A stretch of DNA of 25,564 nt from a virus (lineage: Duplodnaviria > Heunggongvirae > Uroviricota > Caudoviricetes). Made by a program: the position numbers. The DNA lies in the IMG/VR virus record IMGVR_UViG_2698536657_000010, positions 1 through 25,564 of that record; one strand, 5' to 3'. Of this stretch, positions 18,001 to 21,000 are shown piece after piece. Every line of letters starts with the position of its first letter. Within the stretch, counting starts at the first letter, position 1.

Positions 18001-21000
18001 TAGCCAGGGCAGTAACAGCCGGCAGTTCTTCAGCTAGTGCGATATGTAATGCCTGAAGTTCTTCCCGTGAAACGTGCGTTACCGGTTTTTCGCTGCCATG
18101 TTGCGCAAGCCAGCGAATGGGCAGTTCCTGACCGGAAATCGGCAGGAGCATATTATCCTCAATCTCAGCCATATCTTCGCCGTTGACGTTAGTGTTACTG
18201 GCTGAGTTGGTTTCTTCCCTGTCAGCCACTGCTTCTGCGGCGCGGGTATACACCATCGTTTTACCGTCTTCACCACCCGGCACATACAGGCGACAAAATT
18301 CCGTATCAAAAACACCTTCCGCCGGAAGTTCGCTCACTACAGGAAGATTTACCCGCACTGGCTTTTTAAAGTCCTCCGGCTCAAACCCCGCATCCAGCAT
18401 GGCAACATTTGCCCGAAGCAGAACTCTCGCCTGCGAATAATCACTTTTCCAGTAAAAAGCATGAGTAAACCCCAGGCGCTTTCTGGTTGCTTCGTTTTTT
18501 ACCGGAAACGCATATGCATATTCCTGAGTTTTTTCTTCTGCCATTTTTATCACCCCCGTTTTCTGATTTCCGCCATTGCCTGTTTCTTCTGCTGCTCAAT
18601 CCACGCAAGGATCGGCTCAAGCGCCCTGCTCTTTTCGTTGTGCCGGGTATTACGGTTGGCTGTGTCTACAATGAACTTCAGTTGTTCACACCAGATCAGC
18701 ACCTGTTCCGGCGAGACCTTATGACGATTCGCAGCTACGGCTGCATCACGTTGTGCTTTATCCACATCACACCTCCGTCACACCGCGAAGTGCTGCAAAT
18801 ACCGTGGTCACATTTCTTATCTGCCCCATAACATCATTAAGGGCATGATGGGTGACATCCTTTCTGGTGTAAGGCAACGGGATACCAAGATGCGTGGCAA
18901 GCCCTTCAACCGTTCTCACGTCTCTCTCATTCCAGAACGGCCACAGCATTTCTGCACTGGCATTTACCCCAATACTCCTGTCGCACATGTCACGAATCAG
19001 CGAACAGTCAAACACTGGTGACTTCGCCCATACCCGCACCCGACGGATATCAGCATGCTGCTCAATAAAGTTAATCAGCGCATATGTGCCATCACGCTCA
19101 GAAACACATTCATCTTTCCTTACTGCTTCCAGTCGCGTTTCTGTCGATTGCTCCAGCCAGAAACAGAATGTCTCCGGATCAATCACTGCGCCATTGCGTG
19201 TCGCACTTACCCAGTCCAGTCGGAGATAAATGGAATCTCCTTTATCTCCGGTATCAGGATTAAAAAATGCTGCCGCAAAGGAAATAATCCCCGAATGATG
19301 GGATGTTCCTGTGGTTTCAGTATCAATCATCAGATCGTTCATAGTTCCCCCATTACACCCACACATCCAGGCTGAACTTTTTATCCGGATCACAACTTAA
19401 TACCTGTAATTTCTGGTAATAACGCAACAGACGGACGTTATTATTTGCCGGATAAGTGCGTTTCTTTTTTTCCGTTTTTTTATTTTTACGTAATGAAAAC
19501 AGCTTCATGTTTCCACCTCGTCAGATATTTAAGATGTAAGACTCCCGCCGCGTGAGCGGTGTGTTTAATACTTCCTGACAACGTTAATTAATAGCGATAA
19601 AAACTATCGTCGTTTTTTCTTTCCCATCGCCTGATCAAACAGACCAAGAGAAATTAACTCATTATCTATAGCCTCAATATCATCGTGGATGTAAGACAAT
19701 AAGTACGGGATACAAAGATCAACTGCACAGGGATTATCAGCGATGCGCTGAATGTAAGAATGCAGCGTAACCATCTGCGCACGGTGTATGCGGCGACGAC
19801 AGTCACTACTGAGTTGGGGGATCGCGAATTTTGGGCGCTTTTGGATTTGGATTGTAGCCATTGCGGCAGCCTCCGTTGACATGACGTACTGCTATCGCAG
19901 GAGGTGGTATGCTCACTGGCGATAGCCCAGACGGGGATACCACTACCGGCGTCAACGGAAACCGGCCCGACCGAAGTCGGCCCCGCCTGAGCTACCATAG
20001 ACATGGTGGTGGGTGTTATCCAGCCCCTTCCATAAGAAAGGTTTGCGACGGCACCAGTTGGATAACACCGCACCATAAAATGGCGCATCATTGCGTATAC
20101 GGTTACGACAACAAAAAAGACGCTTGCGGCGTCTGATGTCGCCGTTGACAAGTCCGGGGTGGTATGCCCGACTGCCAGCACTGTGGCAGCAGTGAAAAAA
20201 TACCACCTTGCCAACACAGTATTCAAGCTCTTTTTTATCTGTCTGGTCATTTTGCACGTAACCTCACGCTTTCTTAATCACACGAGACCGTAACTTTCTC
20301 TGGTTCAGGATTGTTGTTCTGTTACATCGCTTAACTCATCTGCCAGTTTAAACAGCGATGCCGCTTCTCCGCGCATAAGTTCTTCTGCTGATTCATAACG
20401 ACCGTCATTTAATCGCTTCACCGCAATAGCCATTACACGCTGAGAATCTTTTAATCCTTTACGGAAATGTTTCAGTTTTTCTTTTTCCATATTTTCCGCC
20501 TCAGTTGTTTAGTGTTTCTGTCAAACAAAAAAGAGGAATTCCTTTTCCATGATTTATCTCATCAAAAAATCATTATGGTAAAGTTATCATGGTCAGTCTG
20601 ATAACTCGCCACACCAACATGATGTTAACGACAACTGATTTCTTTTCACTTTAATGATGTGTTTGTGTCTAGATTTAATATTAAAAGATTCACCCACACC
20701 AGCCACCAGCCACCAGCCACCAGCCACCAGTTATTACAATCCAAGCCATTCCAGCCATGCCATTGCCAGTTGTTTTGGTTTGTTGTAATAAGCCTTTTTT
20801 AACCCTTCGTTATAAGCCGGGATGTAAACTATTTTTTCTGCTCTTGAATTCGGCTTATCCGGATCGCGCATTTCCACATATGGCAGCTTGTTATTTCTGA
20901 TCATCAGATCCACGGCATTAGTTGATTTACCTATCAATTCACCAAATTTTGCTGGCGTGACGCCGTCAACAGGATATTGCACCAGGCGGTCTTCTATTGG

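Follow-up and report, generated by a model that had tools for sequence, protein, structure and literature searches.

A probable P4-type antisense-RNA immunity cassette in the early operon of a mosaic prophage that has a C/Cox switch of the P2 type

In the early region of the prophage recorded in IMG/VR as IMGVR_UViG_2698536657_000010, a stretch of about 420 nucleotides (nt; positions 19883-20304) is bounded by two small open reading frames (ORFs), one of 61 amino acids (aa; 20305-20490, minus strand) and one of 92 or 85 aa (19604-19882 or 19604-19861, minus strand). This raises the question of whether the gap between them is a simple terminator, a gene of its own or a regulatory element. An earlier note, made from the sequence alone, had described it as a long non-coding stretch with a terminator, a UUCG hairpin and CGTTGAC repeats, similar to the tR1-type attenuation point of 186-like phages, or alternatively as the site of a short membrane-peptide gene. 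The window analyzed here is the whole 25,564-nt stretch of DNA containing it. The results point, with a probability of roughly 0.85, to a P4-type antisense-RNA immunity cassette that forms part of the early operon and probably gates an anti-repressor-like gene. The prophage itself is a mosaic, and its C/Cox switch is of the P2 type.

The central piece is an antisense RNA of the C4/CI type at 19915..20002 (minus strand). When the window was scanned against all Rfam families, this segment matched C4 (RF01695) with 75.1 bits (gathering cut-off 45, E = 3e-13) over model positions 1-87 of 87. Its minimum free energy structure (-47.5 kcal/mol, z = -4.2, with none of 200 shuffles as stable) reproduces the architecture of the model, with a long closing stem around a UUCG hairpin and a second hairpin, followed by a 3' junction. 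The UUCG hairpin, GGCCGAC-UUCG-GUCGG (GGCCGACTTCGGTCGG, 19967-19982, minus strand), is the first internal hairpin of the RNA; another copy with one mismatch is present at 11600-11615, and none is expected from window shuffles. The loop of the second hairpin contains the element b' (CCGUUGACG, 19958-19950) and the 3' junction contains a' (GUGGUAU, 19943-19937). C4 antisense RNAs are cut out of longer transcripts by RNase P and other activities as stable species of about 70-80 nt, and by analogy the C4-like RNA of the window may also accumulate as a stable processed species.

The comparisons that follow are based on two groups of loci, referred to by L numbers. On the one side, 99 IMG/VR loci were fetched by a shared 16-mer of the C4 stem, of which about 90 parse as C4 RNA (the P4-like loci). 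Beside them, six closer relatives of the window prophage were used; E. coli genomes were obtained by DNA similarity, and distant loci, including a Salmonella diarizonae genome, through the downstream protein. A scan of genome contigs with the single epsilon-like protein described below as query gave zero relatives. In the relatives the C4 RNA scores 74-77 bits, and no other segment of the stretch is as conserved, its divergence being 3-7% versus 16-21% in the adjacent spacer.

Upstream on the same strand, at 20113..20190, a permissive scan revealed a match to the full isrK model (RF01394, positions 1-77) with 46.2 bits against a gathering cut-off of 50 (E = 1.7e-8). The score falls short because the loop of hairpin 1 differs, and relatives reach about 41-46 bits versus 60.8 bits in P4. 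Since the match is below the threshold, its helices were examined in homologues. In 13 diverse homologues, 96.4% of the cells of the three helices were paired and 8 of 17 pairs were changed on both sides, a level reached by none of 500 shuffles, while slid controls paired in 30-49%. Furthermore, the segment folds as the model predicts (-37.1 kcal/mol, z = -3.6 versus shuffles). Judged by its sequence, this is an IsrK/SeqA-like leader RNA with three helices backed by covariation. It consists, in order, of hairpin 1, hairpin 2, whose loop presents the element a1 (AUACCAC, 20165-20159), a single-stranded b1 (GUCAACGG, 20149-20142) and an intrinsic terminator. The terminator, found by a terminator scan, has its minus-strand stem at 20134-20118 followed by TTTTTTGTTGT, with the U-run extending to 20112, and it coincides with the 3' helix of the isrK-family match. 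The Rfam c4-a1b1 model did not match the window leader in the permissive scan, and sub-threshold Rfam matches to SNORD61, mir-9128 and U7 were discarded as chance.

Between the leader terminator and the C4 RNA, the alignment defines a spacer of 110 nt (20003..20112, minus strand), and in the relatives both RNAs are found at identical spacing. The spacer has a conserved block in common with P4, GCGCCA-(T/G)(T/A)TTA-TGG(T/C)G(C/T)GGTGT, and a highly variable 3' half. A hairpin of 5-6 base pairs is possible in this block (GCGCCA-NNTTA-TGGYGYGGTGT, 20040-20085 of the window, minus strand, and 1405-1445 of L003).

A putative internal promoter, in a position like that of PLE, was read from the sequence immediately upstream of the leader (20197..20226, minus strand). 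It would comprise a -35 box TTGAAT (20226-20221), an 18-nt spacer and an extended -10 box TGgTATTTT (20205-20197), with the transcription start near 20190. This geometry agrees with that of P4 (TATAGT, 6 nt, then the start of the isrK model) and with that of the second cassette of E. coli SCU-171, and AGCTTGAAT of the putative promoter is kept in L002 and L107. The putative extended -10 region also contains GUGGUAU, in the sense of a' (20200-20207, minus strand, GGTGGTAT). This fourth copy of ATACCAC/GTGGTAT is probably a coincidence.

The repeats connect these parts. The three CGTTGAC copies at 19874 (plus), 19951 (minus) and 20143 (plus) are the elements b1, b' and b2, and a second triplet, ATACCAC/GUGGUAU, forms a1, a' and a2. 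The 7-mer CGTTGAC by itself has 8 copies in the window where 3.15 are expected, a mild enrichment, and the composite pattern ATACCAC-N(5-35)-GTCAACG occurs three times, always inside the cassette, versus none in 100 shuffles. Exact complements of b' and a' occur twice, in the leader RNA and just downstream of the C4 RNA. The latter site, recognized by its sequence, the composite pattern and its alleles, is a seqC-like target in the leader of an epsilon-like gene (19862..19914, minus strand), with a2 (AUACCAC) at 19910-19904 and b2 (GUCAACGGA) at 19880-19872. b2 overlaps the Shine-Dalgarno sequence GGAGG (19874-19870), which is located 8 nt before the ATG at 19861, and the same arrangement of a2/b2 over the ribosome-binding site is found in P4 and in all relatives. 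The predicted cognate duplexes are of -16.4 kcal/mol (b) and -8.9 kcal/mol (a), versus -8.7 and -6.2 kcal/mol with the other C4 RNA of the window. Trans targets of the cassette C4 RNA elsewhere in the window were considered and rejected, as the composite a-b pattern is confined to the cassette.

The alleles of these elements change together. The approximately 90 P4-like loci carry 21 combinations of b' and a', and of 20 representative combinations, 18 have a perfect complement of each element both upstream (about -150/-166) and downstream (about +52/+21); the remaining two (L042 and L070) are without a clear b' complement at one or both sites. L002, L107, L108 and L110 present further a/b alleles, again matched at all three sites, and the allele of the window was seen only there and in E. 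coli SCU-171. Such a three-way covariation is the signature of the seqA/seqB/seqC system of P4 and the a1b1/a'b'/a2b2 system of P1. Both the anatomy of the cassette and this covariation can be regarded as shown. The covariance across homologous prophages that the earlier note had proposed to look for was found both in the leader helices and in the a/b elements. The minus-strand terminator that it had placed in the middle of the only sizeable ORF (19666-20250, 194 aa), the second copy of the UUCG hairpin and the three repeats were all recovered, and they indeed belong together as parts of one C4/IsrK cassette.

Directly 3' of a2 there is also an invariant block, CUCC.GCGAUAGC (19886-19903, minus strand), with equivalents in P4, L107 and L110. 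The GCGAUAGC portion is the complement of the C4 closing stem on its 3' side (GCUAUCGC), and the CUCC portion that of the Shine-Dalgarno sequence. These complementarities suggest alternative structures of the precursor, like those of isrK-orf45 (PMC4825925).

The gene that would be directly gated by the cassette (19604..19861, minus strand, 85 aa from the ATG at 19861) encodes an epsilon-like "derepression" protein. It matches the Pfam family Derepression (PF25738) with 37.3 bits (cut-off 27) and shows 38% identity to the P4 epsilon protein over the C-terminal 37 residues (E = 3e-7). The length of 85 aa is kept in relatives, and the homologue in L002 is named "derepression protein" in RefSeq. 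In a protein search, this epsilon-like subfamily comprised 14 protein clusters. Scans with Pfam and NCBIfam found no Icd or Ant family match downstream of the C4 RNA.

Regarding the supposedly non-coding nature of the stretch, the earlier note needs a correction: it is not purely non-coding, as an ORF is conserved and open in all homologues examined. This eta-like ORF (19666..20250, minus strand; 194 codons from the ATG at 20250, 203 codons from stop to stop) extends over both RNAs, the intervening spacer and the seqC-like site and enters the epsilon-like gene for 196 nt in a different frame. Its translation shares 42% identity with P4 Eta (E = 2e-15), the frame through the RNA genes being the same in both, and matches Pfam Phage_ASH with 27.4 bits (cut-off 26), a family that P4 Eta matches with 82 bits. 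The frame is open in L002, L105, L107, L108, L110 and every close relative, as well as in nearly all P4-like loci. A strong Shine-Dalgarno sequence accompanies its start in L107 and L110, at 3 nt (L107) and 12 nt (L110) past the stop of the preceding gene. Compared with two relatives, the window shows 99 and 56 substitutions and no insertions or deletions, and the changes are distributed evenly over the codon positions, with no third-position bias, which indicates that the amino-acid sequence is unconstrained. When the same substitutions were re-placed at random, the frame stayed open in 2% (L002) and 15% (L105) of the trials, and in shuffled sequence it was open 5e-5 of the time, so its openness is unlikely to be due to chance. 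The ORF proposed at 20250 is therefore real in the sense of a conserved, open frame homologous to P4 eta and Phage_ASH, but it has 194 codons and no amino-acid constraint, and nothing indicates that it is a small membrane toxin.

In RefSeq/PGAP annotations, the homologous RNA genes (L001, L002 and L104) are covered by an "ash family protein" or by a "host cell division inhibitor Icd-like protein" pseudogene, and no non-coding RNA is annotated. Moreover, the Pfam family Phage_ASH seems to represent the seqA-CI-seqC region in translated form (residues 20-144 of P4 Eta).

Among known systems, P4 is the one with the same order and spacing, having an isrK match of 60.8 bits, a spacer of 107 nt, a C4 match of 74.9 bits and seqC over GGAGG. 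The start reads ATGGCTACAA in both the window and P4, the window shares 76% DNA identity with the P4 cI region from the C4 RNA as far as the start codon, and both have a long eta frame running through the RNAs and an epsilon-family gene downstream. Nevertheless, the a/b specificity is CGUUGAC/GUGGUAU in the window versus CUGUGAA/UUCUCAC in P4, where the seqC sites over GGAGG are GUGAGAA and UUCACAGGA. In P4 the seqC-controlled start belongs to kil, which is nested in frame with eta, whereas the ATG at 19861 of the window is shifted by one nucleotide from the frame of the eta-like ORF and opens the epsilon-family gene directly. The host also differs, being a prophage with a P2-type C/Cox switch and a second cassette instead of a satellite. 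According to the work of Forti et al. (1999), as reviewed in PMC10111431, P4 eta starts upstream of the constitutive internal promoter, is translated only from upstream transcripts, and its translation prevents the immunity-specific termination.

The immI system of P1 and P7 belongs, by the family match, to the same RNA family (Rfam C4), and its logic is alike. Work by Citron and Schuster in 1990 on P1 c4 is said to have described exposed a' and b' elements that pair with upstream and downstream targets, of which the downstream one reportedly covers the ribosome-binding site of the first gene of the antirepressor operon. In P1 that operon encodes Icd/Ant, unlike the epsilon-like gene of the window.

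The Gifsy-1 prophage of Salmonella is another relevant case, as it combines an IsrK-family leader small RNA with its own terminator, a C4-family processed RNA and an antirepressor gene in a non-satellite prophage (PMC4825925; PMC3632133). There, IsrK activates orf45-anrP translation by pairing with the region matching the C4 homologue STnc1160, and Hfq binding and trans-activation of the read-through messenger RNA (mRNA) are experimental properties of IsrK (PMC4825925). The controlled protein is AnrP in Gifsy-1 and epsilon-like in the window, and the activating role of the short IsrK, demonstrated in Gifsy-1, is putative here. In the comparison with Gifsy-1, it should be noted that the spacer is much shorter at the other, IsrK-scoring cassette of the window (locus A). 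That IsrK equals SeqA and C4 equals CI, and that both also occur in lambdoid prophages, has been described (PMC3632133); these equivalences and the occurrence in non-satellite prophages are already published (PMC3632133; PMC4825925; PMC10111431).

The cassette lies in a mosaic prophage integrated beside cpxP, in which a P2-type C/Cox switch and a P2-type int are combined with lambdoid modules. Upstream, a transcription unit able to read into the cassette (20305..21142, minus strand) comprises a Pe-like promoter found by a promoter scan (21142-21114, minus strand, TTGACA-17-TAAATT, 10 of 12 matches), the cox gene (20734-21018, minus strand, 49% identity to P2 Cox) and the 61-aa ORF taken from the ORF listing. 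A divergent repressor gene (21143-21451) has 42% identity to P2 C. The genes downstream encode a 3'-5' exonuclease, RecE, a Rha-type regulator, a P2 gpA-like replication endonuclease, Q and lysis proteins. P4-like satellites carry a gene set composed of the alpha primase-helicase, sid/psu/delta and a P4-type integrase. The possibility that the host element is such a satellite was rejected, because its context (P2-type int/C/cox, RecE, exonuclease, gpA-like endonuclease, Q and lysis genes) is not that gene set. A match to the region was present in only 11 complete E. coli genomes out of 5,426.

Homology with P4, P1 and Gifsy-1 suggests the following mode of operation. In the lysogen, the internal promoter would give a short terminated leader RNA, and some read-through would be processed to the stable C4-like RNA. 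This RNA would pair with a2/b2 and a1/b1 on any transcript entering the region, covering the Shine-Dalgarno sequence in front of the epsilon-like gene, and the transcript, left untranslated, would then be terminated or silenced. In P4, immunity involves an immunity-dependent, Rho-dependent terminator (timm) downstream, and in the window repression may likewise consist of occlusion of the ribosome-binding site, Rho-dependent termination or both. In this way neither the epsilon-like gene nor the early genes after it (exonuclease, RecE and others) would be expressed. Once the Pe/cox promoter fires, ribosomes translating the eta-like frame from 20250 through the cassette would override pairing and termination and allow the epsilon-like protein to be made, and this protein probably inactivates a P2-type C repressor, which would reinforce derepression. 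The short IsrK-like RNA is complementary to the loops of the C4 RNA, and it could have an additional role as a decoy or activator, like IsrK in Gifsy-1.

Other explanations of the stretch have to be weighed against this one. A plain intrinsic terminator or attenuator like 186 tR1, ending a two-gene early unit with the hairpin and repeats as incidental features, would be in agreement with the good terminator-like site at 20134-20112, after cox and the 61-aa ORF. Nevertheless, this terminator is the 3' helix of an IsrK-family RNA, the UUCG hairpin lies within a full-length C4 match, and the repeats and the RNA loops change together in dozens of alleles, so that the explanation is already contradicted by covariation and is highly improbable. 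The window terminator is set apart from 186 tR1 by its architecture, as part of an RNA cassette with covarying antisense targets. What stands of the tR1 comparison is termination control after the first early genes; the plain terminator gives way to an antisense cassette of the P4/P1 type. It is somewhat less improbable, although still unlikely, that the region is essentially protein-coding (an Ash/Eta/Icd-like protein, or a small membrane toxin from 20250) and that the RNA matches are side effects. The conserved and open 194-codon frame, the Phage_ASH match, the RefSeq labels of homologous stretches and the hydrophobic-looking N-terminal translation are in its favor. However, the 99 and 56 changes show no third-position bias, the most conserved segment is exactly the C4 scaffold, and the variable positions are the a/b elements, which change together at three sites, a signature of RNA pairing and not of protein. 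There is also no Icd match in NCBIfam, and a promoter-like site is located downstream of the ATG. A separate small membrane toxin from 20250 was rejected, with neither codon-position bias nor a family match in the Pfam and NCBIfam scans to support it. The earlier note had considered that a conserved intact ORF would speak against the regulatory interpretation; such an ORF was found, yet the RNA function stands, as the RNA genes and the overlapping eta frame of P4 coexist (PMC10111431).

A more serious alternative concerns the sense of the regulation. The cassette could follow an activating logic like that of Gifsy-1, with a silent read-through mRNA that is opened in trans by the IsrK-like RNA to turn on the epsilon-like antirepressor, and it would then be an induction trigger instead of an immunity repressor. 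The activation of orf45-anrP by IsrK (PMC4825925) is a precedent, the window leader RNA is likewise complementary to the C4 loops, and the CUCC block beside a2 can pair with the GGAG of the Shine-Dalgarno sequence. On the other hand, DNA and layout are closest to P4 (76% identity, same spacer, eta frame), where CI is the repressor, and a CCUCC/GGAGG hairpin sequestering the Shine-Dalgarno sequence in the seqC region is no more stable than shuffles (z = +0.8) and was not relied on. The activating logic is rather unlikely, and the two modes are not mutually exclusive. As for the repressing P4-type cassette itself, several observations weigh against it. The leader stays under the isrK gathering cut-off, and the putative internal promoter did not reach the threshold of the consensus scan. 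The ATG of the eta-like frame is 55 nt from the upstream stop, with a GAGG 11 nt upstream, so translational coupling is not obvious, and the frame passes the epsilon-like start out of frame. Finally, the nested kil gene of P4 has no counterpart in the window.

The prophage contains a second cassette (locus A, 11548-11745, minus strand), with an isrK match of 57 bits, a C4 match of 68.7 bits and a short spacer. Its loops (AGUCGUGCGUAG and GUUGAGAA) and matching targets (UUCUCAAC and CUACGUACG) differ in specificity from those of the cassette at 19915-20190, so by their sequences two heteroimmune cassettes would be present in one prophage. This second cassette has its own long ORF matching Phage_ASH (210 aa, 11179-11811) and precedes a 76-aa ORF (11261-11491) with a weak match to the Derepression family (17.9 bits) and a P2 gpA-like replication endonuclease gene (9260-11182). 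In L004 (E. coli SCU-171, 19793-20596) and L104 (SCU-111), two cassettes of different specificity stand in tandem before the epsilon-like gene. The extra segment of these loci is 360 base pairs long, exactly 120 codons, and it starts and ends at a conserved GGAGG...ATGGCTACAATCC joint, with the eta-like frame open through both cassettes (314 codons).

The system itself is known, and what is new in the window is an unannotated locus, a new specificity allele and a variant layout, with an epsilon-like gene at the controlled start and a P2-type prophage as host. The stretch would hold two structured regulatory RNAs together with a frame translated for its own sake, and its recognition corrects the annotation of related E. 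coli RefSeq genomes, which carry an "ash family protein", an "Icd-like pseudogene" or a blank and no RNA gene. The natural series of a/b alleles is useful for the study of heteroimmunity, and a P4-type cassette with an epsilon-family gene inside a helper-type prophage (P2 C/Cox) bears on the exchange of regulatory parts between satellites and helpers. It is tempting, although speculative, to consider that a P2-type phage lineage took over the regulatory core of its own parasite P4, that is, the RNA cassette and the epsilon-family anti-repressor, either to give its lysis-lysogeny switch a second layer gated by RNA or to attack rival P2-like prophages by derepressing them. If this were the case, the cassettes would be swappable specificity modules, as in the two heteroimmune copies that each precede an epsilon-like gene, and their tandem stacking before one gene, with the 314-codon frame open, would be a combinatorial gate.

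Other features were observed in the window. A perfect tandem repeat, CACCAGC x 4.9, is located at 20697-20730 between cox and the 61-aa ORF. Other short repeats are present at 20741-20769. The small RNA STnc100 was identified at 4632-4839 (minus strand, 148.5 bits), a prophage tRNA-Ile (GAT) at 6254-6331 and a naRNA4/REP-type element at 25475-25552, just past cpxA.

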